The position numbers and the translations under genes are program-made. From the NCBI GenBank assembly GCA_035701665.1, contig DASSRQ010000044.1:1-58526 (forward strand): a stretch of 58,526 bases of DNA, read 5' to 3'. The notes below the pieces were generated by a model. That model saw only the letters and a list, made by a program, of their open reading frames with translations, had not been told where the DNA came from and did not search any database. This stretch comes from Vulcanimicrobiaceae bacterium (GTDB taxonomy: Bacteria; Vulcanimicrobiota; Vulcanimicrobiia; Vulcanimicrobiales; Vulcanimicrobiaceae). Below, piece after piece: positions 13,852-49,700 of this stretch (position 1 is the stretch's first letter; each line of letters begins with the position of its first letter).

Positions 13852-14225
13852 CAAACCCAAGCAATAAGCGCAGCCTGCAGCGGCAGCCGGATCCACAGCA
13901 ATGCAGGGCTCGCCACACGCGAAAACGCTTGCGCGTGCTGCGCCATGTACACGTTCGCTGGGAACACCGCGATCAGCAGCAGCACCAAGCCGATGCCGGC
14001 GTACAGCCGGAGTGCCGGAATCAACACCCCGATTCCACCCGCGATTTCGGCGGCACCGCTGATCTGCACGAGCAGCGCAGGCAACGGCAGCGACGGCGGG
14101 ACGATGCGTTCGTACCACTTCGGGTGCCAAAAGTGGTTTGCGCCGGCCACGATAAAAAAGAGTGCCAGCACGACGGCCGATACCGTTTTCAGCGAGCTAA
14201 TTTCCAACCAGTTCCTTAAGCGCAT
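13836..14225 (-). CDS. DoxX family membrane protein
   Basis: 129 aa with four hydrophobic helices. [18 protein letters not shown] ... [12 protein letters not shown] is the typical DoxX pattern. Confidence 0.85.
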
Positions 14226-23875: not shown

Positions 23876-25015
23876 CTACTCGTGAACGGCAAAGCCTCCG
23901 GCGCGGCAGAAGGAGACGCAGTCGCGCCCGGCGCGCTTGCTGTTGTACATCGCGGCATCGGCCAGTTCCAACAACGCACCGGCTTCGGATGCGTCGTAAG
24001 GAAACGCTGCGACGCCGACGCTCGCCGTCAGCGCGCCGTACCGTCCGAAGTCATGCGCGCGAACGGCCTCGCAAAAGGCTTGCGCGCGTTCGATAGCGGC
24101 GACCTTATGCACGTCGCGAACGATCGCGCAAAACTCGTCGCCGCCGTTACGCGCCGGCGTGTCGAGGCCCGCCGTCGTATGCGCGCGCAGCAGCGCCGCC
24201 ATCGTCTGCAGTACTTCGTCTCCCGCGGCGTGACCGAATCCGTCGTTCACGGCTTTGAAGCGGTCGGTATCGATAAACCACAGCGCGAAACTCGCGTTGC
24301 CGGACGCGCGCGCCGCCGCCACGTCCGCACGGAGCAGATCGCGCAACGCGCGCGGGGCGTACAATCCCGTCAGGCTGTCGAACGTCGCGCGCGCCCGATC
24401 GTCCTCCCGCTCGAGTGCCAGCGCGAACGGTCCGGCACTTTGTTCGACCAGCTGCGCGATCGTATCCGACTGCAGTTTTGCGCACGAGGATGAGACGTAC
24501 GCAACCGCACAGACGGCGTCGCCCTTACGCAGCGGTACCGCCAGTGCGTCGGCGTCTGAGGGGATCAGCCGCTCGTCTTGCGCGCGTGCCGCTGCTCGTG
24601 CTCGCGTCCGGGCGGCCCGGGCGGCCGGCGTTTCGCCGTCCCGGCGCAGGCGCACCGTGTGATAGTGGCGGGCGCGGCTTCCGAATGCGTACGCGGCGTA
24701 CAAATCGCTCGCGTCGAGCTGAAAAACGACGAAAGCATCCGCCGCGGGATCGGCCGCGCGTATCGCTTCGCCTAATGCTGCGAGCACGGCCCGCGGCGAC
24801 TCACGGCTCGCAGCGCCGAGCGCCTTCACCGCGTCGAGCATGGTACGCTCGCGCCGCACCTGACCCGACAAGCGGGTTTCGCAGGCGACGGCTCGCGCGC
24901 GCATCGCGCCCGCGTAGGCGACCGAGGATAAACAGAGAAGCGCCACCGCAAGCAATGCCAACCCCACCCCCAGGCCAGTACCCCGAGCATGCGGCCCAAT
25001 CAGCCACGCCTTCAC
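23876..25015 (-). CDS. Diguanylate cyclase (GAF-like N-domain + GGDEF)
   Basis: DSLTGLYAPRAL ... FIDTDRFKAVNDGFGHAAGDEVL ... RNGGDEFCAIV ... SVGVA. The start is uncertain. GTG 25015 includes a TM helix (GLGVGLALLAVALLCLSSVAYAG). ATG 24904 excludes it. Confidence 0.85.
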   Translation of the reverse strand: MKAWLIGPHARGTGLGVGLALLAVALLCLSSVAYAGAMRARAVACETRLSGQVRRERTMLDAVKALGAASRESPRAVLAALGEAIRAADPAADAFVVFQLDASDLYAAYAFGSRARHYHTVRLRRDGETPAARAARTRARAAARAQDERLIPSDADALAVPLRKGDAVCAVAYVSSSCAKLQSDTIAQLVEQSAGPFALALEREDDRARATFDSLTGLYAPRALRDLLRADVAAARASGNASFALWFIDTDRFKAVNDGFGHAAGDEVLQTMAALLRAHTTAGLDTPARNGGDEFCAIVRDVHKVAAIERAQAFCEAVRAHDFGRYGALTASVGVAAFPYDASEAGALLELADAAMYNSKRAGRDCVSFCRAGGFAVHE

Positions 25016-26256
25016 AAGCGGCCATCGACGCCAACCGGCTCGGAACGTCGCTGCGCGCGCAGGGACGGCTCGACGAAGCGGCCCGCGCGTTCGCACGCGG
25101 GATCGACGCGCAAGACGGCATCGCCGAACTGCACTACAACTTGGGCGTAACGTTGACGCACCTGCAGCGCTACGATCAAGCGCGCACGAGTTTCCTACGC
25201 GCGGCTGCGCTGGATGCAAACAACGCCGGCGCGCATTTTGCGCTCTACGAACTCGAACAGATGGCCGGAAACCGCGAGACGGCTCTCGAGCATCAGCGCG
25301 ATGCGCTGGCCGTTCAGACGCTGTACAGCGCTTATGCGCCGCAGGAAGAACGGCGGCTGCTCGTGCTGCTCGCGCCCGGCGACTGGCAAGCAAACGTGCC
25401 GGTGGATTATCTCGTCGATCCCGCGCGCACAACCGTTCACCGCTTGTTTCTGGCGAAGGACAGCGATGCCGGCGCCGCGCTGCCGTCCGCCGATGCGGTT
25501 TTTTGCGCGATCGCGCAGTCGCCCGAGAATCATGCGCGTCTCGAATGGGCACAGCGCGTCGTGCGGCGCAGCGGATTACCGCTCATCAACGATCCGGACG
25601 ACGTTGCACGGGCGGACCGCGCGTACGTGTACGAACGGCTCTCGCACATCGATCGCGTGCGCGTTCCGCAGACGTCGGTTGCCGATCGCGACGCCTTGCG
25701 AACCATCGCGTTTCCGGCGGTCGTGCGGCCCGTAGGGTCGCAGGCGGGACGCGACCTCGCAAAAATCGATGACGATTCCGCGTTGACGGGCTACCTGAAG
25801 ACGACGGACGCTCAATCGTTTTACGTCATGCCGTTCGTGGATTATTCGAATGCCGACGGATACTTCCGTAAATACCGCATCTTCGTCGTGGACGGCGTTC
25901 CGCTGCCGTGCCATTTGGCAATCTCGAAACATTGGATGATTCACTATTACAACGCGCCGATGCGCGAGCATCAATGGATGCGCGACGAAGAACGCACCGC
26001 CCTCGAGGACTTCGATAGCGTCTTTCCGGAGCCGTTGCGCCGCGCAATGAGTGAGATCGCTTCGGCGCTGCATCTCGACTACGTCGGACTCGACTGCTCG
26101 ATCGATCGCGACGGCAATTTGCTCGTTTTCGAGGCGGATCCGGCCATGATCGTGCACGCCGCGGACGATCCGCAGATGTTCGGTTACAAACATCGCGCCG
26201 CGCACGCCATCTTCGATGCTTTCGCCGCCTTGGTGGACCGTGCTCGATCCGTCTGA
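24955..26256 (+). CDS. TPR repeat + ATP-grasp (RimK/glutathione-synthetase-like) ligase
   Basis: TPR-like sequence is LGTSLRAQGRLDEAARAFARGI..AELHYNLGVTL. The ATP-grasp-like C-terminal half is AVVRPVGSQAGRDLAKI ... YFRKYRIFVVDGVPLPCHLAIS ... YVGLDCSIDRDGNLLVFEADPAM. Confidence 0.8.
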   Translation: MPTPPPGQYPEHAAQSATPSQAAIDANRLGTSLRAQGRLDEAARAFARGIDAQDGIAELHYNLGVTLTHLQRYDQARTSFLRAAALDANNAGAHFALYELEQMAGNRETALEHQRDALAVQTLYSAYAPQEERRLLVLLAPGDWQANVPVDYLVDPARTTVHRLFLAKDSDAGAALPSADAVFCAIAQSPENHARLEWAQRVVRRSGLPLINDPDDVARADRAYVYERLSHIDRVRVPQTSVADRDALRTIAFPAVVRPVGSQAGRDLAKIDDDSALTGYLKTTDAQSFYVMPFVDYSNADGYFRKYRIFVVDGVPLPCHLAISKHWMIHYYNAPMREHQWMRDEERTALEDFDSVFPEPLRRAMSEIASALHLDYVGLDCSIDRDGNLLVFEADPAMIVHAADDPQMFGYKHRAAHAIFDAFAALVDRARSV

Positions 26257-27682
26257 TTGGGAAGCGTTTCGCAGCGCGGCGCACCGCGCGCTGGACGATG
26301 CGATCGACTCGCTGCGCGACGTACGCGACGAGCCGGTGTGGCAGCAAGTCCCGGACGAGATCAAGGCGCGGCTGCGCGAACCGATGCCGGACCGGCCGCG
26401 TGCGTTCGAGGACGTCTACGGCGAGTATCGCGAGACGATCGCACCGTACGTCACCGGCAACATCCATCCGCGTTTTTGGGGATGGGTGCACGGCAGCGGC
26501 ACGCCGGGCGGTGCGATTGCCGATATGCTCGCGGCATTCATGAACTCGAACGTCGGCGGACGCGATCACGGCGCCGTCTACGTCGAACGCCAGGTCATCG
26601 GCTGGTTCCGCGATCTGTTCGGGATGCCGGCAGACGCGAGCGGACTGCTCGTAAGCGGCTCGTCCGCCGCTAATTTTATCGCGGTGCTGGCGGCACGCAC
26701 GCGCGCGCAGGAGAACGTTCGCGCAACCGGCGTGCACCAGCACGATGCGCCGCTAGTCGGATACGCGTCTGCGGCTACGCACGCATGCGTACGCAAGGCG
26801 TTCGAAAACGCCGGACTCGGCTCGGCCGCGCTGCGCGTGCTGCCGGTCGACGCGAATCACCGCATGGACGTGAACGCGCTTCGTACGACGATCGAATCGG
26901 ACCGCAGCACGGGAAACCGTCCGTTCTTGATCGTGGGCAACGCCGGCACAGTCGACGTCGGCGCGATCGATCCGTTAAAAGAACTAGCGGAGATCGCGCA
27001 GCGCGAGCAGATCTGGCTGCATGTCGACGGTGCGTTCGGCGCGCCCGCGTACCTTTCGCAAACGCTGCGCGGGAAACTCGCCGGCATCGAGTCCGCCGAT
27101 TCCATCGCGTTCGACTTTCACAAATGGCTGCACGTACCGTACGATGCGGGCTGCGTGCTCGTTCGCGACGGCGCGGTGCATCGCGCTACGTTTGCAAGCG
27201 AAGGACCGTACATCACGCGGATGCCGCGCGGCCTGGCCGCGGGCGAGCCGTGGTTTACGGACTACGGTCCCGAACTCTCGCGGGGATTCCGCGCGCTCAA
27301 GGTCTGGTTCACGCTCAAAGAACACGGCAGCCAAAAACTGGCGCACGCGATCGAACGAAACTGCGAACAAGCCCGGATGTTCGCATCTCTTGTGGACGCG
27401 CATCCGCTCTTCGAACGCGTAGCGCCGGTCGAGCTGCAGATCGTCGTGTTCCGGCCCGTCCTTCCGGGAATAAGCCCCGTCGAGATCGATACGATTGTGG
27501 ATGAAGCCGCTATTCGCGTTCAGGAGTCGGGCGAAGCCGTGCTCTCTTCGACGACCGTCGAAGGACGGCGCGCGCTGCGCGTTTGCATTACGAACCACCG
27601 GACGCAGGATGCCGACCTGCAGCGGCTGCCTGCGCTGCTCGAAGCCGTCATAGGAGAGATGCGATCTACGCGAGCAGGCTGA
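26216..27682 (+). CDS. Pyridoxal-dependent (group II) amino-acid decarboxylase
   Basis: 488 aa. SGSSAANFIAV ... WLHVDGAFGA ... SIAFDFHKWLHVPYDAGCVLV, which carries the PLP-lysine motif. The start is ATG 26216 or GTG 26240. Both overlap the upstream stop at 26254-26256. Confidence 0.9.
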   Translation: MLSPPWWTVLDPSDWEAFRSAAHRALDDAIDSLRDVRDEPVWQQVPDEIKARLREPMPDRPRAFEDVYGEYRETIAPYVTGNIHPRFWGWVHGSGTPGGAIADMLAAFMNSNVGGRDHGAVYVERQVIGWFRDLFGMPADASGLLVSGSSAANFIAVLAARTRAQENVRATGVHQHDAPLVGYASAATHACVRKAFENAGLGSAALRVLPVDANHRMDVNALRTTIESDRSTGNRPFLIVGNAGTVDVGAIDPLKELAEIAQREQIWLHVDGAFGAPAYLSQTLRGKLAGIESADSIAFDFHKWLHVPYDAGCVLVRDGAVHRATFASEGPYITRMPRGLAAGEPWFTDYGPELSRGFRALKVWFTLKEHGSQKLAHAIERNCEQARMFASLVDAHPLFERVAPVELQIVVFRPVLPGISPVEIDTIVDEAAIRVQESGEAVLSSTTVEGRRALRVCITNHRTQDADLQRLPALLEAVIGEMRSTRAG

Positions 27683-30240
27683 TGCGCGCGCGCATCAACG
27701 AGCGGCTGGAGCGCGCGACGCGGTATCCGGTCACGCTCATCGTTGCGCCGGCCGGTTTCGGCAAAAGTTCCGCGCTGCGCGATTATCTGCAAACCGCGCG
27801 CATCGACGCGGTCCGCTGCGACGTACGGCGGGAAGACAACTCGCTGCTCGCGTTCGTGCACCACCTGAGCGAAGCGATAGAACCCGTCGCACCCAGCGCG
27901 CTTGCCGCATTTCCGTCCATGCAGGAACGCGTGCTCGCCGCGGGCGAGCCGGTGCGCCAGATCTCCGACTGGTTCGCCGAACATTTAAAACGCACTGTCT
28001 GCACGATCGTGATCGACGATCTGCATTATGCCGCCGCCGATCCGGCATCGATCGCGCTGCTGGCCGATCTCATCGAGCGCTCCGGCGATCGCATCAAGTG
28101 GATCATCGCCGCACGCAGCGATGTCGGTCTTCCGGTCGGAACGTGGATCGCTTACGGACGCATGGATCTCCCCGTGGGCGAAGACGAGCTGCGCTTCACC
28201 ACCGACGAAGCGCTGGCGGCAGCCGATGCGAGCGCCGTCGAACTCGACGCGCACGAGATCGAGTCGCTGCGTCAGCTCACGGAAGGCTGGCCGGTAGCGC
28301 TGACGATTGCGATCCGCACGCGTACGCATTCGCGGGATCTGCGCAGCGCATCGCTCGGCACGCAGGAGATGGTGTACCGCTACTTAGCGGAACAAGTCTT
28401 TAGCGCCCTGACGCCGGAGCAGCAAACGTTTGCCCTTGCTACGTCGGTCTTCTCGTCGTTCGACGTGGCAATAGCGGAACGGTTCGGTGCGAAGACCGCG
28501 TCGCTGCAAGAGTTGCGCTCGCGCATTGCATTCCTCAACGAAACCGCTCCCGGCCAGTTTCGCTATCACGATCTCTTCCGCGACTTTCTAGAGACGGAAC
28601 TCCGCCGCTCGGGCGATCGCGAATACGCGAACGCCGTTTGTCACGCGGCAGAGATCCTCGAAGAGCGCGGGTCGTACGGCGATGCGTTGACGCTTTACGC
28701 CAAGGTTCAATCCAGCGCGAACGTTCTGCGCATCGTCGACGAACGCGGCTTCGGCCTGCTCGAACGCGGCGAAGGCGAACGGTTGTGGATGGCGCTCGAA
28801 GCGGTTCCCGAACGCGACCTGAACGCTCACGCTGCTGCGCTCGGGCTCAAAGCCGTCGTGGAATCGGCTCGAGGCCGCTTCGAGCTCGCGGAGCGGCGAT
28901 TCATCGCAGCGATCGAGGCGGCATCGGGAACGACGGATCTGCAGATTTCGCTCGTGAGCCGGTACGCGATCGAGCTCGTGCGCCACGAACGCGATTCGAT
29001 CCATTTCCTCGAACCGTATGCAGCGCGGACCGATCTGACCGACTCTCAACGGGTGCCGCTACTCGGCACCCTTGCGACCGCGTACGCGCGGGCAGGCAGA
29101 CGAAGTGAAGCGCTCGCGACGATCGACGCCGCCGTTGCTTCGAGCGAAGGTGCGTTGGACGAGACGCAGCAGGCGCGTCTGTATCAGCAAGCGGCATTCG
29201 TTTATCACGACATTCCCGACCACGAACGCACGCGGACGTACGCCGAAGCCGCCGTCGATCTTGCGCTCGCGCACGGATTGCACGATGTGGCCGCACGGGC
29301 GTATAGCGCGCTCTTCACGATCGTTTTCAACGAAGAAGACGATCCGATCTCCTCGCTTGCCATTCTCGACAAGATCGAAGAAAACGCGCTCAAAGGCGCG
29401 AGCCAGCAAGCGCACATCTTCGCGCTGATCGCGGCATACGAGATCGAAGCCGACCGCGGCGACGATGCGGCGCTCGAACGCCTTGACGGCGCGCTGCACG
29501 ACAACGAAGGACGGTTGCCGTTTGCGCGTTTCGAAGCGCTGCTTCCGGCTTCCGCATTGCGAGCTGCGGGCGACGGCGACTTCGGCCGCGCGTTCCGCCT
29601 GCTCAACGGAACGCTCGATCCGCTTTCAGCGGCCGACCGGCGTGCGCTTCGCGCGTCCGAGATCGCGCTGTACGCAGCAGCGGGCGGAGAGTCGGAGGCA
29701 GCTGCCGCGGCCGTACAACTTGCCGACGAAGCGATCGAATTGGCACACGCAAACAACCGCCGCACGATTCGAGCGCGTGTCTTTTTAGGACTTGCCGAAC
29801 TCGTGCGCGGTCACGAAGCGGCGGCGCACCGGTATCTTTCCGAAGCGGAAAAAGCCGTTTCGGGAACGATGCGCCGCATGCGCGCACTCGTAAATGCGGC
29901 GCGCACTGTTTACCGTTTGCAGCTCAAGCAAAGCGACGAGGCGGCGTATTTGAGCGCACTCGAGCGGCTGCGTTCGGAACACTTCGGCGGATTGGCGAAG
30001 TTGCTCAAAGCGCTGCCCGCATCGCAGCAAGGTCATGCATACAGCTCGCTCACGGTCGCCGAACGCGAGATATTGCAGCTCCTCGCCGGCGGAGCAAGCA
30101 CCAAGGACGTCGCGGGCAAGACCGGCCGCAGCCCCCACACGGTGGACACGCACATCCGTTCCATCTGCCGCAAACTCAACTGCAGCGGCAGGCGCGAAGC
30201 GGTGGCGTTAGCAACCACTCAGGGCTGGGTACACACCTAG
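27682..30240 (+). CDS. MalT-like STAND ATPase / LuxR-family transcriptional regulator
   Basis: ATG 27682 overlaps the decarboxylase TGA (TGATG). Walker A is VAPAGFGKSS and Walker B is TIVIDDLHYA. A long helical-repeat sensor region follows. The C-terminal GerE/LuxR HTH is LTVAEREILQLLAGGASTKDVAGKTGRSPHTVDTHIRSICRKL. Confidence 0.9.
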   Translation: MRARINERLERATRYPVTLIVAPAGFGKSSALRDYLQTARIDAVRCDVRREDNSLLAFVHHLSEAIEPVAPSALAAFPSMQERVLAAGEPVRQISDWFAEHLKRTVCTIVIDDLHYAAADPASIALLADLIERSGDRIKWIIAARSDVGLPVGTWIAYGRMDLPVGEDELRFTTDEALAAADASAVELDAHEIESLRQLTEGWPVALTIAIRTRTHSRDLRSASLGTQEMVYRYLAEQVFSALTPEQQTFALATSVFSSFDVAIAERFGAKTASLQELRSRIAFLNETAPGQFRYHDLFRDFLETELRRSGDREYANAVCHAAEILEERGSYGDALTLYAKVQSSANVLRIVDERGFGLLERGEGERLWMALEAVPERDLNAHAAALGLKAVVESARGRFELAERRFIAAIEAASGTTDLQISLVSRYAIELVRHERDSIHFLEPYAARTDLTDSQRVPLLGTLATAYARAGRRSEALATIDAAVASSEGALDETQQARLYQQAAFVYHDIPDHERTRTYAEAAVDLALAHGLHDVAARAYSALFTIVFNEEDDPISSLAILDKIEENALKGASQQAHIFALIAAYEIEADRGDDAALERLDGALHDNEGRLPFARFEALLPASALRAAGDGDFGRAFRLLNGTLDPLSAADRRALRASEIALYAAAGGESEAAAAAVQLADEAIELAHANNRRTIRARVFLGLAELVRGHEAAAHRYLSEAEKAVSGTMRRMRALVNAARTVYRLQLKQSDEAAYLSALERLRSEHFGGLAKLLKALPASQQGHAYSSLTVAEREILQLLAGGASTKDVAGKTGRSPHTVDTHIRSICRKLNCSGRREAVALATTQGWVHT

Positions 30241-30263
30241 AACTTAGGCGGTCCCGTCTGGGA

Positions 30264-31532
30264 GTGTTGACTTTGAGCCGATTGCGTACTTTAACAACCG
30301 TGGCCCTCATCTGCGCCCTCGCAGCGTGCAGCGGCTCGCCCGCGCCGTTCGTTCCGGTCCAGAGTCAGAGCTCGGCCTCGGCTAAAGCCCCCCACACGAC
30401 CGCCGACAATCCAAGTGCGCTCCCGGGCGACAACCCGAGCGCCCTGCCCGGCGACAACCCCAGCGCGCTTCCCGGTGACAATCCGAGCGCGCTGCCCGGC
30501 GACAATCCGAGCGCGCTGCCCGGTGCCCAGCTTGCCTGCGCGAACACGTTCGCCCAAGGCCAAGCCAACTGCACCGTTGCCATCAATCTGAACTCGCCGG
30601 TCGTTAAGAATGCGCAGACCCCCGCCAACCTGCTCGCGGGCCTGCATCCGGCCGATCTGCAGAGCCGGTACGGCCTGCCTTCGGCAAATGCCGGCGGGTT
30701 GGTTGCGATCGTCGATGCGTACGACGACCCGACCGCCGAAGTCGATCTGGCCGCCTATCGCGCCGCTTTCGGTCTGCCGTCATGCACCAGCGCCAACGGC
30801 TGCTTCACCAAAGTCGATCAGCGCGGCGGTACGTCCTATCCGCAAACGAACCTGGGCTGGTCGCAAGAGATCGCCCTCGACCTCGACATGGTCTCGGCCG
30901 TCTGCCCCAACTGCAGCATTCTGCTCGTCGAAGCCGACTCGGCAAGTTTCGACGACCTCGGTGCGGGAGTGGATCTCGCGGCTACGCACCATCCGGCCGC
31001 CATCAGCAACAGCTATTACGGCCCCGAGTACTCGGGTGAAACGGCCGAAGACGTACACTATAAGCACCCGGGAATTGCGATCACGGTCAGCTCCGGCGAT
31101 CAGCGCTCGCCGTTCTACCCCGCCGCCTCGCCGTACGCCACCAGCGTCGGCGGAACGTCGCTGACCAACAACAGCGGCGCGTGGAGCGAGAGCGCGTGGC
31201 CGTACGACGGCGCCGGCTGCAGCAAGTATGAAGCCAAACCGTCCTGGCAAGGCAACACGGGCTGCAAGACGCGTTCGACCGTGGACGTCGCGGCCGTCGC
31301 CGATCCGCAGACCGGTGTGACGACGTTCGATTCGACCGCCGGCGGGTGGTATGTCGTGGGCGGAACGAGCGTGGCCGCGCCCATCGTGGCAGCCGCGTAC
31401 GCGCTGTCCTCAAACCCGCAAGGACCCGCGTATTCGTACGCTCACCGGAGCGCGTTCAATGCCATCGGCGGCCAGAGCGGCTACTTCTGGACAACCGGCC
31501 TGGGATCACCGAACGGCTTGGCGGGCCTCTAG
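30264..31532 (+). CDS. Lipoprotein sedolisin (peptidase S53) catalytic domain without a pro-domain
   Basis: The lipobox is ALICALAACSG. Five DNPSALPG repeats follow. The S53 catalytic Glu/Asp motif is WSQEIALDLDMVSAVCP. The serine motif is GGTSVAAPIVAAAYA. The start is GTG 30264 or TTG 30273, after GGGAG. Confidence 0.85.
   Translation: MLTLSRLRTLTTVALICALAACSGSPAPFVPVQSQSSASAKAPHTTADNPSALPGDNPSALPGDNPSALPGDNPSALPGDNPSALPGAQLACANTFAQGQANCTVAINLNSPVVKNAQTPANLLAGLHPADLQSRYGLPSANAGGLVAIVDAYDDPTAEVDLAAYRAAFGLPSCTSANGCFTKVDQRGGTSYPQTNLGWSQEIALDLDMVSAVCPNCSILLVEADSASFDDLGAGVDLAATHHPAAISNSYYGPEYSGETAEDVHYKHPGIAITVSSGDQRSPFYPAASPYATSVGGTSLTNNSGAWSESAWPYDGAGCSKYEAKPSWQGNTGCKTRSTVDVAAVADPQTGVTTFDSTAGGWYVVGGTSVAAPIVAAAYALSSNPQGPAYSYAHRSAFNAIGGQSGYFWTTGLGSPNGLAGL
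30405..30524 (+). repeat. Five tandem 24-bp repeats encoding (DNPSALPG)x5
   Basis: The units are 30405-30428, 30429-30452, 30453-30476, 30477-30500 and 30501-30524. The copies differ only at synonymous third positions. Confidence 0.95.
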
Positions 31533-31814
31533 AGCGTCTTCGACGCTGCTGTAGATCGGGTAGACACCCTCAAGCCCCGTCAGGGTTAACAATCTGCGAA
31601 CGAAAGCCGACCGGACGGCCAATGCCGCCGGCGGCTTTTGCGTTTCCACGCGGTGCTTGTGCGCGAGCAAAAGCGCGCTGATCAGCGAACTGGTGATGTA
31701 TTTGGCGCTCGTGAGATCGAGCACGACGTCGCGCTCGGTGTACGCAGGCTCGAGCCGCTTCCGAAGTTCGGCCGCCTGATAGATATCCCACTCCCCCGCT
31801 AGCGATATAACCAT
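31506..31814 (-). CDS. STAS-domain protein (anti-sigma-factor antagonist family)
   Basis: 102 aa. VISLAGEWDIYQAAELRKRL...VVLDLTSAKYITSSLISALL...VRRLLTLTGLEGVYPIYSSVEDAL matches the SpoIIAA/RsbV pattern. Confidence 0.85.
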   Translation of the reverse strand: MVISLAGEWDIYQAAELRKRLEPAYTERDVVLDLTSAKYITSSLISALLLAHKHRVETQKPPAALAVRSAFVRRLLTLTGLEGVYPIYSSVEDALEARQAVR

Positions 31815-31921
31815 GTCTGAATGGTAACCCGTTAGCAGGCAGCCCCGCCCTACTCAAATCTAGGTATGTCGGGTGGAGTCCCTCATCTCGTACCGTGAGG
31901 TTAGGAGGGAGTCCAAACTTC

Positions 31922-33832
31922 ATGAAAAGAGCGATCGCCGCGGCGCTGGCCGCCGGCATTATAACGGCCTCGTGCTCCGGGCACGGGGGCTCGGCGCTTC
32001 CCAACGTTACCTCGGGCGGCGGTACGCCGGGCACGATGGGAATGCACGGCACCCGCGCAAGTTCGGTGGCCGTCAATCTGCCGCTGGGATGGGCCGCGAC
32101 CGGTACGCAGGCCCTCAGCCTAACGGGCGTCACCGATAACGGTGCACTGCCCGCTTCTCAAGTTCTGACCGTCCACGTCGCGCTGCAACTGCACAACGTC
32201 GACCAACTCAAACAATCCGTTGCCGCCGGGCAGATCACCCCGCGCGCAACGTTCATGAGCACGTATGCGCCGACGAACAGCGACGTCGCACAAGTAACGC
32301 AGTATCTCAGCTCGCAAGGCTTCACGAACATCAACGTGCAGGCCAATCATATTCTGGTGGATGCATCCGGTACGGCCGCTACGATCGAAAAAGCGTTCAG
32401 CACGAAACTCGAGTCGTTCAGCGGCGCATCCGGCAACGTTTTTGCAAACACGCAGCCCGCGCTCGTTCCGCAGGCCCTTTCGGGCATCGTGGTTTCGGTG
32501 CTCGGCCTCGACAACGTGCAGATGGCCAAGCCCGCGCCGAAGAGCGGCGGCAAACCGAGTGTAACGCCGACGCCGGTTCCGGCAACGCCGACGCCTGCGC
32601 CGACCGCAACGCCGACGCCCGCGCCGACCGCAACACCCACGCCGACTCCGACGCCGACGCCGGTTCCGAGCGCGGATGCGTGCACGCAAGGCGTGAACGC
32701 CGAAGGCATCTGCCCGCGCTATTACGATCCGGCAACGATTCAGCTCGCGTACGACGCGGCGAACGTTCCGACGGCTGCGAATACGCGCGTCGCGATCTTC
32801 ACCGAAGGCGACCCGTCCGGCGCAATCAGCGACTTCCGCTGGAACGAGCAGGTCTACAAGCTGCGTCAAGTGCCGGTCAATTTGATCCAAATCGGCGCGC
32901 CGAACAGCGACACGTCGGGTAACGGCGAGTGGGTGCTCGACATGACGGCCGTGCAAGGCACCGCTGCCGACGTGCAGCAGATCGATCTCTACGACATGCC
33001 GTCGATGAGCTTCGCGGACATGGCCGTTTCGTACAACAAATGGGTGATCGACAACACCGATCCGGTCGGCAACAGCTCGTTCGGCGGATGCGAAGTCTTC
33101 CCGTATCAAGACGGCTCGATGCTTGCGGCCGACGAGATCCTCGTCGAGGCCGCATCACAAGGCCAATCGATGTTCGTATCGACGGGCGATAACGGCGGCT
33201 TCTGCACCGCAGCCGTGGATACGAACGGCGCACCCGGCGGCGTTCCGATGGTCGAGTATCCGGCCGCGTCACCGTACGTCGTTGCAGTCGGCGGAACGGA
33301 TCTGTTCAGCAACGCCGACGGTTCGTATCTCGGTGAGACGTCCTGGGAAGCCGGCGGCGGCGGTCTGAGCCAATTCGAATACTCGCCGTACTGGGAATCG
33401 CCGACGCAGCCTGTCGGAACGACGCCTGCAGGCCTGACGTTCCGCGGACTTCCCGACATCGCAATGGATGCGTCGATCGAAACCGGTTATCTCGTCTACT
33501 CGTCGGCATCGGCCGTAAACGGATCGTGCACGCCGTGTGTGTCGGCCGGTACGAGTCTTGCATCGCCGCTTGCAGCAGGTGCGTACGCACGCATGCAATC
33601 CGCGCACGGCAACGCGCTCGGCTTCGCGCCATTCCGCTTCTACCACATCTACACGAGCAATCCGAACTCGAGCGAAGCCAGCGCGGGACCGCCGCCCACC
33701 TCGCTCGTCGGCGGATTCCACGACATTCTCTCAGGCGCTAACGGCGACTACACCGCGCTGCCGCGTTACGACTACACGACCGGCATGGGCAGCTTAGACG
33801 TCGCCAAGACCAACGCGATCATCGGACAATGA
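31922..33832 (+). CDS. Lipoprotein sedolisin (peptidase S53) with a pro-kumamolisin-type activation domain
   Basis: AGGAGGGA lies 10 nt upstream of ATG 31922. The lipobox is GIITASCSG. The pro-domain reads LTVHVALQLHNVDQLKQ...YLSSQGFTNI. A Pro/Thr linker follows. The catalytic motifs are GNGEWVLDMTAVQG and SAGTSLASPLAAGAYA. Confidence 0.9.
   Translation: MKRAIAAALAAGIITASCSGHGGSALPNVTSGGGTPGTMGMHGTRASSVAVNLPLGWAATGTQALSLTGVTDNGALPASQVLTVHVALQLHNVDQLKQSVAAGQITPRATFMSTYAPTNSDVAQVTQYLSSQGFTNINVQANHILVDASGTAATIEKAFSTKLESFSGASGNVFANTQPALVPQALSGIVVSVLGLDNVQMAKPAPKSGGKPSVTPTPVPATPTPAPTATPTPAPTATPTPTPTPTPVPSADACTQGVNAEGICPRYYDPATIQLAYDAANVPTAANTRVAIFTEGDPSGAISDFRWNEQVYKLRQVPVNLIQIGAPNSDTSGNGEWVLDMTAVQGTAADVQQIDLYDMPSMSFADMAVSYNKWVIDNTDPVGNSSFGGCEVFPYQDGSMLAADEILVEAASQGQSMFVSTGDNGGFCTAAVDTNGAPGGVPMVEYPAASPYVVAVGGTDLFSNADGSYLGETSWEAGGGGLSQFEYSPYWESPTQPVGTTPAGLTFRGLPDIAMDASIETGYLVYSSASAVNGSCTPCVSAGTSLASPLAAGAYARMQSAHGNALGFAPFRFYHIYTSNPNSSEASAGPPPTSLVGGFHDILSGANGDYTALPRYDYTTGMGSLDVAKTNAIIGQ
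32582..32629 (+). repeat. Two tandem 24-bp units inside a Pro/Thr linker (ATPTPAPT x2)
   Basis: gcaacgccgacgcctgcgccgacc (32582-32605) and gcaacgccgacgcccgcgccgacc (32606-32629). They sit within the linker TPTPVPATPTPAPTATPTPAPTATPTPTPTPTPVPSA. Confidence 0.85.
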
Positions 33833-33843
33833 GGAGTCACGGA

Positions 33844-35598
33844 ATGAAGAAACTGTCTGCAGTCGCGTTGGCGACCGGATTACTCGCTGCGTCGTGCTCG
33901 GGACACGGAGGGCAATCTGCACTGCCCTCCGTTCCCAGCCAAACGCAAAACGCGTCGGCGGGAGCGCGCAACGCATCGGTTGCGATCGCCGCGCCCGCCG
34001 GCTGGTCGGGTACTGCAACACAAGGCGCGACTGTCGCTAATGCAAGCGATCTCGGCGCGCTCGCTTCCACGCAAGCACTCACGGTTCGCGTGGCGCTCGG
34101 CGGACACAACCTGGACGCACTCGCAAAAGCGGTTGCATCCGGACAGCAGTTCACCGATGCGCAACTGATGGCGCAGTATGCACCGACGTCGTCTGAAGTG
34201 CAGCAAGTCGTCAGCTACTTGCAGTCGCAAGGCTTCAAGAACATCGACGTCGCGCCCAACCACTTACTCGTGAGCGCCGACGGTACGGCGGCGAACGCGC
34301 AAAGCGCATTCAATACATCGCTGCACGCCTTCTCGCTCGGCGGGAAAACACTGTACGCGAACGTTACGCCGGCCTACGTTCCGGTAGCGCTAAACGGTAT
34401 CGCGGTTGCGGTGCTCGGATTAAATAACGCCGCGCACATGTCGTCGAGTCCGACGGACTGCTTCCCGACGAATCCGCCGCCGGGCGGCGTACCGTGCGTG
34501 CGTTCGTTCGACGCGCAAACGATTCAAACGTTCTACGATGCCGGCTCGACGCCGACGGCGGCAAACACCACCATCGCCGTCATGGCCGAAGGCGACGTCT
34601 CGCAGGTCGTTACGGATCTGGCAGAGGCCGAACAGGCACAAGGCCTTGCGCAAGTGCCGGTAACGGTCAAGCAAGTCGGCCTCGCCAGCCCGGATACAGC
34701 CGGCGTCGGCGAGTGGGACCTCGATACGCAGTCCTCGACCGGCATCGCCGGCACGGTGAAAGCGCTGTATCTATATCACACGACGTCGATGACGGACTCC
34801 GATATTGCGAACGAATACAGCCATTGGGAATCCGATAATCTCGCGCAAACCGGCAACTCGTCGTTCGGCGAATGCGAATATGCGGCATACCTCGACGGCG
34901 CCATGAAAGCCGACGACAACGTGCTGTTGTTCGCGGCAGCGCACGGCCAGACGATGTTTGCATCGAGCGGCGACACCGGATCGTCGTGTCCGATCGTCGG
35001 AACCAACGGCGTTCCCGGCTCGGGGCCGCCGATGGTATCGTATCCGTCGTCGTCGCCGTGGGTTGTCACCGCCGGCGGTACGACGCTGACGTCTAATACG
35101 GACGGAACGTACGACGGCGAGATCGCGTGGAATGCGGGCGGCGGCGGATTGAGCCAGTTCGAAAACGCAGCGAGCTGGATGCAGCCGGTGCAGCTGACGA
35201 CCGGCATCGTTGCCGCAGGCAATCTGCGCGGCGTTCCGGATATTGCGATGGCTGCAGATCCGAATGCCGGCGGCTATCTCGTGTACGACGAAGGCTGCGG
35301 CATGCCGTGCGGTATCGGCGGCACCAGCGAAGCTTCGCCGCTATCGATGGGCGTGTACGCGCGCATGCTCAGCGCGCATCCCGGTCTTGGGTTCGCCGGA
35401 CCGCATCTGTATGCGAACTACCAGCAATACGAAGGCGGAGAGAACACGGTCACCGGACCGCCGCCTTATGCAACGTACGGCGGATTCCACGACATCATCA
35501 CCGGTACGAACGGTATCTACCAAGCGCTTCCAGGCTATGACTACACCACCGGCTTGGGTACGTTCGACATCAGCAATCTGAACAACACCATCCACTAA
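33844..35598 (+). CDS. Lipoprotein sedolisin (peptidase S53) with a pro-domain
   Basis: GAGGAG at 33831-33836 precedes ATG 33844. The lipobox is GLLAASCSG. The pro-domain reads LTVRVALGGHNLDALAK...YLQSQGFKNI. The catalytic motifs are GVGEWDLDTQSSTG and GIGGTSEASPLSMGVYA. Confidence 0.9.
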   Translation: MKKLSAVALATGLLAASCSGHGGQSALPSVPSQTQNASAGARNASVAIAAPAGWSGTATQGATVANASDLGALASTQALTVRVALGGHNLDALAKAVASGQQFTDAQLMAQYAPTSSEVQQVVSYLQSQGFKNIDVAPNHLLVSADGTAANAQSAFNTSLHAFSLGGKTLYANVTPAYVPVALNGIAVAVLGLNNAAHMSSSPTDCFPTNPPPGGVPCVRSFDAQTIQTFYDAGSTPTAANTTIAVMAEGDVSQVVTDLAEAEQAQGLAQVPVTVKQVGLASPDTAGVGEWDLDTQSSTGIAGTVKALYLYHTTSMTDSDIANEYSHWESDNLAQTGNSSFGECEYAAYLDGAMKADDNVLLFAAAHGQTMFASSGDTGSSCPIVGTNGVPGSGPPMVSYPSSSPWVVTAGGTTLTSNTDGTYDGEIAWNAGGGGLSQFENAASWMQPVQLTTGIVAAGNLRGVPDIAMAADPNAGGYLVYDEGCGMPCGIGGTSEASPLSMGVYARMLSAHPGLGFAGPHLYANYQQYEGGENTVTGPPPYATYGGFHDIITGTNGIYQALPGYDYTTGLGTFDISNLNNTIH

Positions 35599-35620
35599 CC
35601 AAGCCCTGTTTAGGTTGTAG

Positions 35621-35651
35621 GAGGCCGCGCGCTGCGCGGCCTCTTTCTTTT
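35621..35651 (+). terminator. Rho-independent terminator after the third sedolisin gene
   Basis: GAGGCCGCGC (35621-35630), a 3-nt loop, GCGCGGCCTC (35634-35643), then TTTCTTTT. Confidence 0.8.
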
Positions 35652-35727
35652 GTGCGCGACTACTCTGTTTTCGGTATGTTGCGGGTGCAGCACGGCGCGT
35701 TACCCTGCTCGAGAGGGAGAAACACGA

Positions 35728-37476
35728 ATGAAAAAACTCGCCGTTGCTACACTAACCGCTGCCCTGCTCGCTTCGTGCGGAGGGCACGGATCGAATGCGC
35801 TTCCCCCTGGAGCGGGCGCGGCGCAAAGCGCCGTCACCGGCGTTCGAACTGCAACTCTTGCCGTCGCACCAACGGGGTGGGCGAATACGTCGACGCAAGC
35901 GCTGAAGATCGTCAACGCGTCCGATACGGGCGCAACCAACGTCACGCAAACACTCAACATCACCGTCGGACTCGCGATGCGCAACCAGTCGCAACTCGCA
36001 TCGGCCGTCGCTTCGGGTCAGCAAGTCGACGACGGAACGTTCATGGCAACGTACGCTCCGACATCCGCACAAGTCTCCGCCGTCACGTCCTACCTGCAAA
36101 GCAAAGGGCTGACCAACATCTCCGTTTCGCAAAACAATCTGGTCGTCACCGCGAGCGGAACGGCCGCGCACGTGCAGTCGGCGTTTAATACGAACCTGCA
36201 CTCGTTCGCGGGCGGCACTACGCCGTTCTTTGCCAACGTTACGCCGGCGTACGTCCCGTCGAACCTCGGCGGGATCGTCGTTGCCGTATTGGGATTGAAC
36301 AATCTGCAGGCATTCAAACCGACGCCGCACGTAACGTCGTGCTCCGTTGAAGGACAGACCACGCCGCCGCAAGAGTGCCTGCGCTTCTACGATCCGGCGA
36401 CGTTCCAAAAAGCATACGACGCGACCGGTGCATCGAGCGCGTACGCAACGCCGATCGCGATCATGGCCGAAGGCGATCCGACGCAAGCCATCACCGATTT
36501 CCGCACCAACGAAAGCAAGTTCGGTTTACCGCAGGTACCGCTCACGCGCGTGCAAGTCGGCCTCGCCAGCACCGACACCGCGGGCAACGGCGAATGGACG
36601 CTGGATATGACGTACTCGACCGGTATCGCGCAAAACGTGAAAGCGCTGTACCTGTATACGACGACGTCGCTGACCGATCAAGACATCGCACTCGAGTACA
36701 ACAAGTGGGTGACGCAGCATTATACGAACGTCGGCAACAGCTCGTTCGGCGGCTGCGAAGTCTTCCCATATCTCGACGGGTCGATGGTCATCATGGATAA
36801 CCTGCTGCTCGAAGGCGCCTCGCACGGACAAACGATGTTCGCTTCTTCCGGCGACAACGGCGGCTACTGCAATCAATTCGTCGATACAAATGGTGCACCC
36901 GGCGGCGCTCCGTTCGTGGAATACCCGGCCGCTTCTCCGTACGTTACGGCAGTCGGCGGTACGGATCTCTTCTCTAACGCCGACGGTTCGTACAAAGGCG
37001 AAACGCCGTGGGAAGCCGGCGGCGGCGGCATCAGCCAATTCGAGTACTCGCCGTATTGGGAAACCGGCGTGCAGCCTGTCGACAAGGCCGGAAGTTTCCG
37101 CGGTGTTCCGGACGTTGCACTCGATGCTTCGTTAGAGACCGGCGCGGAACTGTGGGGCGGTCAAGCGGCAAACGGATCGTGCACGCCGTGCGTCACCGGC
37201 GGAACCAGTTTGGCAAGCCCGCTGATGGCCGGCATCTGGGCGCGTGCCGAAAGCGCGCACGGCAACTCGCTGGGCTTCGCTCCCATCCGTCTCTATAAAG
37301 ACTTCACCGGACATGCGGCCGGAGCTGTTGTTGCCGGTCCGCCCGCGTGGCAACCCGACGGCGGATTCCACGACATCCTAACGGGCACCAACGGTTTGTA
37401 CACGGCACTGCCGGGTTACGACTACACGACCGGATTGGGCTCGCCCGATATAGCCACGCTGATCAAACAAATCTGA
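35728..37476 (+). CDS. Lipoprotein sedolisin (peptidase S53) with a pro-domain
   Basis: GAGGGAGA lies upstream of ATG 35728. The lipobox is ALLASCGG. The pro-domain reads LNITVGLAMRNQSQLAS...YLQSKGLTNI. The catalytic motifs are GNGEWTLDMTYSTG and TGGTSLASPLMAGIWA. Confidence 0.9.
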   Translation: MKKLAVATLTAALLASCGGHGSNALPPGAGAAQSAVTGVRTATLAVAPTGWANTSTQALKIVNASDTGATNVTQTLNITVGLAMRNQSQLASAVASGQQVDDGTFMATYAPTSAQVSAVTSYLQSKGLTNISVSQNNLVVTASGTAAHVQSAFNTNLHSFAGGTTPFFANVTPAYVPSNLGGIVVAVLGLNNLQAFKPTPHVTSCSVEGQTTPPQECLRFYDPATFQKAYDATGASSAYATPIAIMAEGDPTQAITDFRTNESKFGLPQVPLTRVQVGLASTDTAGNGEWTLDMTYSTGIAQNVKALYLYTTTSLTDQDIALEYNKWVTQHYTNVGNSSFGGCEVFPYLDGSMVIMDNLLLEGASHGQTMFASSGDNGGYCNQFVDTNGAPGGAPFVEYPAASPYVTAVGGTDLFSNADGSYKGETPWEAGGGGISQFEYSPYWETGVQPVDKAGSFRGVPDVALDASLETGAELWGGQAANGSCTPCVTGGTSLASPLMAGIWARAESAHGNSLGFAPIRLYKDFTGHAAGAVVAGPPAWQPDGGFHDILTGTNGLYTALPGYDYTTGLGSPDIATLIKQI

Positions 37477-37504: not shown

Positions 37505-37536
37505 AGGGCGCCGCTTGCGGCGCCCTCTTTTTTATT
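37505..37536 (+). terminator. Rho-independent terminator after the fourth sedolisin gene
   Basis: AGGGCGCCG (37505-37513), loop CTTG, CGGCGCCCT (37518-37526), then CTTTTTTATTT. Confidence 0.8.
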
Positions 37537-46657: not shown

Positions 46658-46734
46658 ATTAACTTTGTATCACAAAGCAATGGCGGCCGCAAGCCCGGCG
46701 GGACGCCCGCAATTGCACGCCCAACCCTGCGCGA

Positions 46735-49700
46735 ATGAATCAGGGGTACTTGCGTCAACCGGCACTCGCGGGCGACCGCGTCATCTTCGTTTGCGAGGAC
46801 GACCTGTGGTCGGCGCCGCTCGCCGGCGGTACGGCGATGCGCCTGACGACCTCGCAAGGAGCCTGTTCGCTCCCGCGCGTCTCGCCCGACGCGCAGACGA
46901 TCGCGTTTGTCGCTACCGACGAAGGCCACCCCGAACTTTATACGATGCCCGCCCGCGGCGGCCGCGCGCAGCGGCTGACGTACCTCGGCGGTACCGCGAC
47001 GATGACGAGCGCGTGGAGCCCGGACGGAAGCGAGATCTACTTCGTGGGCAACCCCAGCGCATGGTATATGCGCGAGACTCGCGGCTTCGCGATCGCGGCA
47101 AACGGCGGAGAGCCGCGCGAGCTGCAACTCGGTCACATGAAGTCGCTTTCGCCGGGTCCGCACGGACGTTTCGCGATCGGGCGTAACGAAACGGACGCGG
47201 CGCGCTGGAAGCGGTATCGCGGCGGCACCTCGGGCGAAGTGTGGGCCGACGTACGCGAACCGGGAGAGTTCGACAAACTGCCGCTTCCCGACGGCAATCC
47301 GACGTGGCCGATGTGGATCGGCGAGCGGATCTATTTTCTCTCCGATCACGAAGGCATCGGAAATCTGTACTCGTGCGATCTTGCCGGCGGCGACGTGCAG
47401 CGGCATACGCATCACAACGATTACTATGCGCGCTTCCCGTCAACCGACGGAATGCGCATCGTGTATAGCGCAGGCGCAGTGCTGTATTGTTACGACATCG
47501 CGTCCGGCGAAACGCGCGAACTCGCGATCGACGTACCTTCGGCGGCACCGCAGACCGCGCGCCGGTTTGCAGCCGGCAGCGAAGAGTTCACCGAGTTCGC
47601 GCCCTCGCCCGACGGAACGCGCATCGCGCTGATCGCGCGCGGCCGCCCGTTCACGATGCCGCTGTGGGAGGACGCGCCGCTCAACCACGGCGACAAACCC
47701 GGCGTGCGTTATCGCAACATTGCCTGGATGCACGACGGAAAGCGAATCGCACTCACGACCGATGAGAACGGCTACGAGCAGATTGCAATTGCCGGTGCGG
47801 AAGCCGGCGGTACGATGCGGATCGTTACCAGCGGCGATATCGGCCGCGTCACCGAGCTCGTGTGTTCGCCGTCAAACGATCGCATCGCATTTGCAAATCA
47901 CCGCTACGAACTCGTGCTCGTCGACAACGACGGCTCGCTGCGCGTGCTGGACAAGAGTCTTGGCAATCGCGTTACCGATCTCGCGTTTTCCCCCGACGGC
48001 CGGTGGCTCGCGTACGTGTGGTGGCCCGGCGGCGACAACCGCGCGATCATCCGCATCGTAAAGTGCAAATCGGGCGACGCTTTCGACGTAACGCCGACGC
48101 TCCGCGTCGATCAAGCGCCCGCGTGGGATCCGGAAGGGAAGTATCTGTACTTCATCTCGACGCGCGACTTCGATCCGGTCTACGATGCGCTGCAGTTCAA
48201 TCTCAGCTTCCCGCAAGCACAGCGGCCGTTTTTGGTGACGCTGCGCAAAGACGTGCCGAATCCGTTCTCGCCCAAGCCCAAACCGGTTCACCGCGAGCAC
48301 GAACACGAACGCGAAGACGCGCAAGAGGAACGCAAACGCGCCGACAAGCCGCCGCGCATCGATATCGACAAAGACGGCATCACCGGCCGCATCCTCAGCT
48401 TCCCGGTCGACGAAGGCGACTACGGCGACGTAGCGGCCGTACGCGGGCGCGTGTATTTCACGCGATTCGAAGTTCGCGGCATCAAGCCGGGCGATCGCGG
48501 CTGGGACGACGATGCGCCGGGCGGCACACTCGTCGCGTACGATTTCGAACAGCAGCGCAGTGCGACCGTGGCGCAAGACGTCTCGGATATCGCGCTTGCA
48601 AGCGACAATCACACGCTGGCCTATACGTCGCACGACCGCCTGCGCATCATCGATGCGCTTGCCGATCTGCCCGACGACGGCGACGATGCGAAACCGCCTT
48701 CAGAACCCGGCCGCAAGAGCGGCTGGATCGACCTCGATCGCATCAACGTCGAGATCGATCCGCCGGCCGAGTGGCGTCAGATGTATATGGAAGCATGGCG
48801 CATGCAGACCGAGCAGTTTTGGGTCGAGGATATGTCCGACATCGACTGGGACCGCGTTAAGGACCGGTACGCGGAACTGCTGCCGCTCGTGCGAACGCGC
48901 AGCGAGTTATCGGACGTCATCTGGGAGATGCACGGCGAGCTCGGAACCTCGCACGCGTACGAGATCGGCGGCGACTTGCGCCGGCCGCCCGACTACAACA
49001 GCGGATTTTTGGGAGCCGATCTCAAGCGAGCCGGGAACGGCTGGCAAGTCGAACGCCTGTACCGCGGCGACTCGTGGAACCGCGAGGTAGATTCGCCGCT
49101 TGCCGAGCCCGGTTTGAACGTCGAACCCGGCGACGTCATCGTGGCGATCGGCGGACGCCGGCTTAGCGACGATCTCACGCCGCAGCAGGCGCTGGTCAAC
49201 ATGGCCGGGCGCGACGTCGCGGTCACGCTGCTGCGCGGCGGACAAGAGCGGACTATCGCTGTCCGCGCGTTGGCAAGCGAGCAGCCCCTGCGCTATCGCG
49301 CGTGGGTCGACGCCAACCGCGCGTACGTGCACGAAAAAACGAACGGAACGATCGGCTACGTGCACGTTCCGGATATGGGTCCGTGGGGATTCTCGGAGTT
49401 TCACCGCGGCTATCTCTCGGAGTTCGATCGCGACGGCTTGCTCGTCGACGTGCGTTACAACCGGGGCGGCCACGTCTCGCCGCTGCTGCTCGAGAAACTC
49501 GTGCGTAAACGCGTCGGGTACGACGTGTCCCGCCACAGCAACAAACCGATGCCGTATCCGCCCGAATCGGTCGCCGGGCCGATCGTTGCGCTAACGAATC
49601 AGTTTGCGGGATCCGACGGCGATATCTTCAGCCACTGCTTCAAGCTGTACAAGATCGGTCCGCTCGTCGGAAAGCGCACGTGGGGCGGCGTGATCGGCAT

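Follow-up and report, generated by a model that had tools for sequence, protein, structure and literature searches.

Does a tightly packed run of genes for a ligase, a decarboxylase, a transcriptional regulator and four proteases constitute one regulatory circuit, or do separate units merely lie next to each other? The question is raised by a 12.5-kb block (24955-37476) within a stretch of 58,526 nucleotides (nt), referred to here as the window, from a Vulcanimicrobiaceae bacterium (NCBI GenBank assembly GCA_035701665.1, contig DASSRQ010000044.1, forward strand). An earlier note, made from the sequence alone, had proposed that the block synthesises a signal, senses it and answers with secreted proteases, as a self-contained circuit. 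Comparison with related loci suggests instead that the block probably, with appreciable room for doubt, represents two separable modules placed side by side in one lineage of Eremiobacterota: an ATP-grasp ligase with a pyridoxal phosphate (PLP) decarboxylase (module 1), and a regulated protease cassette consisting of a MalT-like regulator, sedolisins and a STAS protein (module 2).

Acidic soils and peat harbour many Eremiobacterota, a phylum that is almost uncultured and whose modes of nutrient acquisition are largely inferred. A conserved regulator and acid-protease cassette with its own promoter element would, if the proposed reading is true, provide a testable handle on regulated extracellular proteolysis in the phylum. 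The cassette is built from well-known parts; the combination itself may be new, no description of a STAND/LuxR-sedolisin cassette or of this gene combination having been encountered in the limited literature collection searched.

Nine genes of the block lie at, or a few bases from, the positions the earlier note had given them, and their domains and catalytic motifs are as it had claimed, according to profile hidden Markov models, structure matches and an alignment of the four sedolisins. On the forward strand, a RimK/LysX-like ATP-grasp ligase with TPR repeats (433 residues; 24955-26256) is followed by a group II PLP decarboxylase resembling aromatic-amino-acid decarboxylases (488 residues; 26216-27682), a regulator combining a MalT-like STAND NTPase with a LuxR-type helix-turn-helix (HTH) (852 residues; 27682-30240), and sedolisin 1, an S53-family lipoprotein lacking a prodomain (422 residues; 30264-31532). 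Three pro-sedolisin lipoproteins complete the series, namely sedolisin 2 (636 residues; 31922-33832), sedolisin 3 (584 residues; 33844-35598, its start probably at 33844) and sedolisin 4 (582 residues; 35728-37476, a transcription unit of its own), while a single-domain STAS protein of SpoIIAA/RsbV type (102 residues; 31506-31814) is encoded on the reverse strand. The tight coupling described for the first three genes is borne out, with ligase and decarboxylase frames overlapping by 41 nt and the decarboxylase stop and regulator start joined in a shared TGATG; the 23-nt gap from the regulator stop to the GTG of the prodomain-less lipoprotein is likewise present in the sequence.

Synteny of the two modules

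The comparison was based on 164 related loci, cited below by L numbers. A ligase-anchored scan, taking one genome per species, yielded 80 loci, in which the gene next to the ligase encodes a decarboxylase in 31 cases, a FAD/NAD(P)-binding protein in 37 and neither in 12. A search with the regulator gave 599 matches, the best 120 of these being at least 56% identical, and the regulator-anchored sets comprised three genome contexts (L082, L083 and L084) and 27 metagenome orthologs.

Downstream sequence was available for 28 ligase-decarboxylase loci, which divide evenly into 14 with the regulator cassette and 14 with none. The linked loci carry the regulator, sedolisin 1, the STAS gene (13 of 14, where the sequence reaches) and up to about three pro-sedolisins. 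In six of the regulator-less loci, the decarboxylase is followed by a convergent glmU gene, at a distance of 0-40 nt in L024, L027, L035, L053 and L064 and of 1.6 kb in L017; a GGDEF gene lies upstream in all six, and an M48 peptidase gene in L024 and L027, which reproduces the frame of the window. The frame also occurs with the regulator cassette alone (L082 and L088) and with the cassette plus an inserted MFS/HlyD pair (L085). The gene order of L082 is M48, GGDEF, regulator, sedolisin 1, STAS and glmU, without ligase or decarboxylase, and on the same contig a ligase-decarboxylase pair (L013) is situated 570 kb from the regulator cassette. The same chromosomal frame is found with module 1 alone, with module 2 alone or with both.

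The regulator and sedolisin 1 are neighbours in 14/14 linked ligase-anchored loci, 3/3 regulator-anchored genome loci and 20/21 informative metagenome loci, in total 37 of 38 informative loci, and they occur in three arrangements: co-directional, divergent, and with the sedolisins upstream of the regulator. Among the 27 metagenome orthologs, sedolisin 1 is adjacent in 20, and another six stand on very short contigs or are truncated at a contig end; the exception (L110:6064-6888) is a regulator remnant, covering residues 1-275, between GGDEF and glmU genes and with no sedolisin genes, which looks like a cassette in decay. The ligase-decarboxylase pair is near the regulator in two of the 14 metagenome loci with at least 4 kb of upstream sequence and absent nearby in the other 12, and it is not adjacent in any of the three regulator-anchored genome loci. 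L083 has the regulator, sedolisin 1, the STAS gene and two pro-sedolisins beside a tricorn gene, without the enzyme pair, and L084 has sedolisin 1 divergent from the regulator and a second sedolisin 1 paralog, without STAS and pro-sedolisins. In the regulator tree, linkage to ligase-decarboxylase and the presence of STAS are confined to one clade, within which loci with and without the linkage are intermingled; loci of the deeper clades carry just the regulator and sedolisin 1, pro-sedolisins being variably present.

On this comparative evidence, the regulator and the prodomain-less sedolisin appear to be an ancient and nearly invariant unit, the pro-sedolisins and the STAS gene its accessories, and the ligase and decarboxylase an independent pair which, in one lineage, has ended up ahead of it. 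The close packing and coupled translation of the genes in a single genome had hinted at one circuit; comparative synteny shows two modules with independent histories. The earlier note had itself named missing synteny among relatives as a finding that would speak against its circuit. The synteny of regulator and S53 genes is kept; the trio of ligase, decarboxylase and regulator does not hold together as a unit.

Genes for an MFS transporter and a HlyD-like membrane-fusion protein stand on the opposite strand directly upstream of the regulator in L011:12762-15670, L085:5537-8508 and L086:7015-9988. This 3-kb insert, which separates the regulator from the decarboxylase or the GGDEF gene, was considered as a component of the cassette and set aside, being found in these three loci and not generally.

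Control regions of the pro-sedolisins

Hairpins resembling intrinsic terminators lie after sedolisin 3 (35619-35645, forward strand; 12-bp stem with nine G-C pairs, then a T tract) and after sedolisin 4, where one closes the block (37505-37526, forward strand; 9-bp stem with eight G-C pairs, then a T tract). Between the ligase and sedolisin 1, no forward-strand hairpin of comparable strength was detected by a scan whose total count was at chance level, the matches there being weak ones with 5-8-bp stems (25482, 26654, 27362 and 27568). Sedolisin 3 starts 11 nt past the stop of sedolisin 2 with no element or terminator in between, and these two genes are probably co-transcribed. From the hairpin positions, the likely transcription units are therefore ligase-decarboxylase-regulator-sedolisin 1, STAS on the reverse strand, sedolisins 2-3, and sedolisin 4. 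A sigma-70 promoter scan of the block gave one match against 2.3 expected.

Alignment of the divergent STAS/pro-sedolisin intergenic regions of 16 cassettes exposed a 20-nt element, CTACYCRRWTTYCGGTATGT, which is conserved in all 16 and from whose sites a matrix was built. The 58.5-kb window has exactly two matches, one ahead of each pro-sedolisin unit. Copy 1, CTACTCAAATCTAGGTATGT (31850-31869, forward strand; 32.5 bits), in the STAS/sedolisin 2 intergenic region, is a training site; copy 2, CTACTCTGTTTTCGGTATGT (35660-35679, forward strand; 29.2 bits), directly beyond the terminator of sedolisin 3 and 49 nt ahead of the sedolisin 4 start codon, is not in the matrix. The best of 20 window shuffles reached 10.5 bits. 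Across 2.3 Mb of related loci the element is seen in every related cassette: there are 36 matches, every one of them within regulator-sedolisin cassettes, and all 36 precede a pro-sedolisin unit or, where the pro-sedolisin has been lost (L067, L082 and L084), the relic of one.

The layout 3' of the element is fixed and consists of about 21 nt, a TAnnnT box (mostly CGTACGCT), GGAGG and ATG-AAR. Copy 1 is followed 21 nt on by TACCGT (31891-31896), then by GGAGG and the ATG at 31922; at copy 2, TACCCT (35701-35706) has equal spacing and precedes a Shine-Dalgarno motif and the ATG at 35728. With TAnnnT taken as the -10 box, the element is centred near -44 and spans about -35 to -54, and class II activators, LuxR-type ones among them, bind near -44. 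In addition, its TACYC half-site resembles, we take it, the sites of NarL/GerE-type HTH proteins, which offers a lead. We infer that the 20-nt element is a candidate operator of the regulator. The matrix scan of the window placed no copy ahead of ligase, regulator or sedolisin 1; hence the element does not link module 1 to module 2. As for the single circuit originally envisaged, the link between regulator and sedolisins has gained ground from the 37/38 adjacency and the element at pro-sedolisin promoters, and the link from ligase and decarboxylase to the regulator has lost it.

A different conserved element, resembling TATACCC-N6-8-GGGGGAT, is present where the regulator and sedolisin 1 are divergent, at a fixed distance from the regulator start (-69/-70 in L084, L089, L096, L097 and L105; -41 in L125; -105 in L011), and its TACCC half-site recurs in the 20-nt element of the pro-sedolisins. 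The idea that it is a general operator was rejected: it is missing from the block, the single window match (38989) being at chance level, and is therefore specific to the divergent-type lineage.

Proposed mechanism and alternative explanations

In the reading preferred here, the regulator and sedolisin 1 would be co-transcribed in the window, and divergently transcribed in other lineages. In the presence of its ligand, the ATP-dependent STAND regulator would use its LuxR-type HTH to bind the 20-nt element, whose centre lies about 44 nt ahead of the predicted start sites, the position of a class II activator, and would thereby turn on both pro-sedolisin units (sedolisins 2-3 and sedolisin 4). 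The products would be lipoprotein acid proteases degrading extracellular protein. A more elaborate and phylum-specific version, which we put forward tentatively and consider rather improbable, is a sentinel-protease circuit, in which basal sedolisin 1 would clip extracellular protein to peptide, and the regulator would sense the peptide, bind the element and induce the pro-sedolisins. MalT senses maltotriose released from maltodextrins, and this is the analogy behind the proposal; further tuning might come, in the Baltobacteraceae lineage, from the STAS protein and from the ligase-decarboxylase pair transcribed with the cassette.

Several observations weigh against regulation of an autonomous cassette through the element. 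No copy precedes the regulator or sedolisin 1 in the window, the dyad symmetry is weak, its reliable part being TACC-N8-GGTA alone, and the element could be a promoter element for another factor. Moreover, the decarboxylase and regulator frames overlap in the window, and the two genes are 0-66 nt apart in all but one of the 14 linked loci, the exception being L011 (3 kb); with such spacing the two modules may be co-transcribed here and hence, to some extent, functionally coupled. The same spacing, the co-directional order of ligase, decarboxylase, regulator and sedolisin 1 in the window and the 14 related loci, the lack of a comparably strong terminator-like hairpin between them and the ligand-gated nature of MalT-type regulators are what favours the explanation that the enzymes make an amide or amine ligand of the STAND regulator and that the whole block is one self-contained circuit. 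This was the earlier note's proposal, and it now appears quite improbable, because local synteny speaks against it: the regulator and sedolisin 1 lack an adjacent ligase-decarboxylase pair in 12/14 metagenome and 3/3 genome loci, and ligase-decarboxylase occurs without the regulator in 14/28. Unlinked regulators (L082, 63% identity; L083, 67%) are as near to the regulator of the window as linked ones, or nearer, and are interleaved with them in the tree, and a sister ligase subfamily pairs with a FAD/NAD(P)-binding protein and never with the regulator. It could also be argued that regulator and sedolisin stand together without being functionally linked, through a gene order passed down within one lineage, given that every locus comes from one phylum, Eremiobacterota, so that shared ancestry inflates the co-occurrence counts. 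We hold this to be highly improbable in view of the persistence of the pair through all three arrangements and at a different chromosomal site in L083 while the flanking genes change; furthermore, in L119, L121 and L122, a paralogous regulator (30-32% identity) also has a sedolisin 1 paralog about 1.5 kb downstream.

The weak symmetry of the element and its absence ahead of the regulator and sedolisin 1 also suit an explanation in which it is a promoter element or a site for some other factor, such as an alternative sigma factor under STAS control, the regulator controlling its own operon or distant targets. A STAS gene, a typical anti-anti-sigma component, stands at the same control region, given that the divergent STAS and sedolisin 2 genes have the region of copy 1 in common, and GGTAT within the element presumably resembles -10 motifs of the SigB/SigF type. 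We nevertheless consider this explanation unlikely, since the element also occurs in STAS-less cassettes (L089, L092, L093, L097, L101, L102, L104, L105, L109 and L125), the regulator is the sole transcription factor consistently linked to it, and the TAnnnT box 21 nt downstream puts it at an activator position, not at -10. In addition, the genes called to a distance of about 10 kb, and the subset of window open reading frames (ORFs) that was scanned, include neither an anti-sigma kinase nor a PP2C phosphatase.

The regulator

Support for the family assignment of the regulator comes from a C-terminal GerE HTH (residues 788-844, E 4.8e-13), an N-terminal P-loop NTPase matched by the Pfam models AAA_16 and AAA_22, and the MalT model NF003420, which covers residues 1-404 (E 3e-41); PF25873 (WHD_MalT) is on record for the 852-residue regulator of the near-identical contig L081 and for all listed orthologs. 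The P-loop APAGFGKS is similar to the APAGYGKT of MalT, the Walker B motif reads VIDDLH, and G25, F26, G27, K28, D112 and D113 are invariant in 12 orthologs. The protein is not MalT itself, as shown by a score of 141 bits against a cut-off of 537, with nothing matched past residue 404, and no mal genes were present among the flanking genes examined. Because the MalT model stops at residue 404, the sensor domain and the ligand of the regulator differ from those of MalT.

With the MalT/LAL family, the regulator has in common the P-loop STAND NTPase, the MalT-type winged helix, a long helical sensor region and the C-terminal GerE/LuxR HTH, and by analogy it would probably activate adjacent genes in a ligand- and ATP-dependent manner. 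It departs from that family in its linked genes, which are sedolisin proteases and not a sugar regulon or an antibiotic cluster, and the MalT box bears no resemblance to the candidate operator CTACYCRRWTTYCGGTATGT. The LuxI/LuxR systems provide a further comparison: there, too, enzyme genes adjoin a regulator with a LuxR-type HTH, and the lux box lies near -42.5, as the candidate operator here is likewise centred near -44. Unlike LuxR, however, the present regulator contains a STAND NTPase and lacks a domain for autoinducer binding, and in the loci compared the enzyme pair is not co-inherited with it.

In the long-read assembly of L082 (L082:10001-13882), the regulator and sedolisin 1 are called as one in-frame protein of 1293 residues, which is seen nowhere else and may reflect a lost stop codon or a sequencing error. 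The sedolisin 1 paralogs that accompany the MalT-like regulators of L119, L121 and L122 are 41-54% identical to sedolisin 1, and with these loci the regulator-sedolisin pairing may reach a second, older gene pair.

The sedolisins

All four sedolisins of the window have intact catalytic residues (E-x-x-L-D, SGD and GTS) and predicted lipoprotein signal peptides. Sedolisins 2, 3 and 4 carry the prodomain the earlier note had ascribed to them (Pro-kuma_activ, E 7e-24, 4e-23 and 2e-23, about 1e-23 each). The entire catalytic domain of sedolisin 2 aligns with Pseudomonas sedolisin 1ga1 (E 4e-45), whose E80, D84, D170 and S287 correspond to E336, D340, D423 and S545. Sedolisin 2 further has a Pro/Thr-rich low-complexity linker between the prodomain and the catalytic domain, encoded by 6-nt and 24-nt repeats (32582-32662), which sedolisins 3 and 4 do not have.

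Sedolisin 1 starts with GTG at 30264, an alternative TTG at 30273 behind a GGGAG Shine-Dalgarno motif being possible, and has the lipobox LAAC; the prodomain model PF09286 (Pro-kuma_activ) was not detected in it by the Pfam scan. Its predicted model returned kumamolisins or sedolisins as all of the top 14 Foldseek matches (E 1e-14 to 1e-11). E202, D206, D279 and S369, together with eight Cys residues, are invariant across 24 orthologs, and the family is strongly conserved, with identities of at least 55% among the matches listed. A 24-nt tandem repeat of 5.2 copies (30400-30523, forward strand; Tandem Repeats Finder score 171) encodes (PGDNPSAL)n, the linker from the lipid anchor to the catalytic domain, and residues 19-84, the repeat region, are disordered in the predicted model. 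In nearly all orthologs, the stretch from the lipobox to the catalytic domain contains 2-8 octapeptide repeats that end in LPG, with variants such as DNPSALPG, ENPSGLPG, ENATGLPG and TPHALPG among others (L001-L125); these may serve as a linker or as a site for processing or binding.

In agreement with the sedolisins and kumamolisins of MEROPS family S53, all four proteins show a subtilisin-like fold with Ser-Glu-Asp catalytic residues and an oxyanion Asp, and sedolisins 2-4 possess the pro-kumamolisin activation domain. In contrast to that family, all four are predicted lipoproteins, and in sedolisin 1 a disordered octapeptide linker and a 40-residue Cys-bridged N-terminal extension replace the prodomain. 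As judged from sequence, they are presumably acid proteases for extracellular protein breakdown. The prodomain-less family is large, with invariant catalytic residues and four likely disulfides, and it poses a folding question, since S53 enzymes are thought to need their prodomain, an intramolecular chaperone.

The STAS protein

The STAS gene is convergent with sedolisin 1, the 3' ends overlapping by 27 nt. Its location between sedolisins 1 and 2 on the opposite strand had been recognised correctly; its description as an orphan does not hold, as the position is conserved across one regulator-tree clade of cassettes. The protein matches PF01740 (E 5e-10) and, below the cut-off of that model, TIGR00377 (E 2e-11). 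It is similar to SpoIIAA/RsbV in being a lone STAS domain of about 100 residues, with a serine at the phospho-site position of SpoIIAA and TM1442, aligned with the DS*AG serine of TM1442. It differs in that the Asp before and the Gly after this serine are replaced (TSSL versus DSxG), and in that its gene is tied to a protease cassette, with no partner kinase or phosphatase seen within the 10 kb or so mentioned above.

The ligase and the decarboxylase

Pfam recognises only the TPR repeats of the ligase (residues ~28-120), and no Pfam ATP-grasp model matched at E < 0.01. Its C-terminal 300 residues gave weak NCBIfam matches to LysX, RimK, MptN and CofF (E 2e-6 to 6e-4), the best score being 27 bits against cut-offs of 143-350. 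The AlphaFold model (predicted local distance difference test score 89) has LysX/ArgX 5k2m as its best Foldseek match (E 2e-11), with RimK, Ddl and PsnB weaker, and by its predicted fold the protein is taken to be a genuine ATP-grasp enzyme. Scoring below every named-family cut-off, it belongs to a distinct, unnamed subfamily. An alignment profile searched against the sequences of the Protein Data Bank gave matches dominated by the TPR repeats, the ATP-grasp half not being reached. The family is kept across Eremiobacterota, with the motifs PGDWQAN and WMIHYYN.

The decarboxylase matches PF00282 (Pyridoxal_deC, E 5e-65), and its translation contains the PLP-lysine motif DFHKW. Its nearest solved structures are DOPA and tryptophan decarboxylases, with a full-length match to DOPA decarboxylase 7xin (E 6e-66), and MfnA is distant (E 4e-14). 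Among NCBIfam models, it scored best with RhbB, at 186 bits against a cut-off of 900, which places it in none of the substrate families for 2,4-diaminobutyrate, Asp, Tyr, His or Glu.

The presence of a decarboxylase predicted to form aromatic amines beside a TPR-bearing LysX/RimK-like ligase suggests, by analogy, amide formation on an amine or on a peptide or protein C-terminus: module 1 would form an aromatic amine, which the ligase would then attach either to an amino acid or to the C-terminus of a peptide or protein. Methanofuran biosynthesis, in which MfnA is a tyrosine decarboxylase and MfnD an ATP-grasp tyramine-glutamate ligase, has the same pairing of a group II PLP decarboxylase with an ATP-grasp ligase and thus offers a precedent for the sequence of amine, then amide. 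The likeness has its limits, as the present ligase has a TPR domain and is nearest to LysX, ArgX and RimK, modifiers of protein C-termini, the decarboxylase is nearest to DOPA and tryptophan enzymes, and no other mfn genes are close by.

In the sister ligase subfamily (37 loci within L018-L074, e.g. L031:8122-9486), a 455-residue FAD/NAD(P)-binding protein (PF13454) takes the place of the decarboxylase, and a conserved 175-residue protein of no known family is encoded upstream. The ligase and the PF13454 protein represent a second uncharacterised ligase-partner pair in the same phylum.

Genomic setting

The window has a G+C content of 59-66%, and the homologs of its proteins carry the names Candidatus Baltobacteraceae, Vulcanimicrobiaceae, Elarobacter or Eremiobacteraeota; it is therefore taken as a chromosomal segment from an uncultured, Baltobacteraceae-like member of the Eremiobacterota (Vulcanimicrobiota). 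Upstream of the block are the housekeeping genes uvrA, uvrB, prs, the L25 ribosomal protein gene and pth, as well as genes for an extracytoplasmic function (ECF) sigma factor, an M48 peptidase and a GGDEF protein. Downstream, glmU, convergent with the block and past the hairpin that closes it, is accompanied by gltX, genes for methylmalonyl-CoA mutase and MeaB, uppS, a tricorn protease gene and infC.

A second large regulator of the STAND type, a BTAD and AAA_16 protein encoded by an ORF of about 1,300 codons, lies beside a GH38 alpha-mannosidase gene on the reverse strand (7327-11346 and 11347-14196), and this neighbourhood may represent a further regulator-hydrolase pairing. The tricorn-type protease gene is located at 46663-49965 on the forward strand, 9 kb 3' of the block. 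In L083, the regulator-sedolisin cassette directly follows the orthologous tricorn gene (L083:6542-9856), and the cassette has therefore used two sites in one conserved neighbourhood.

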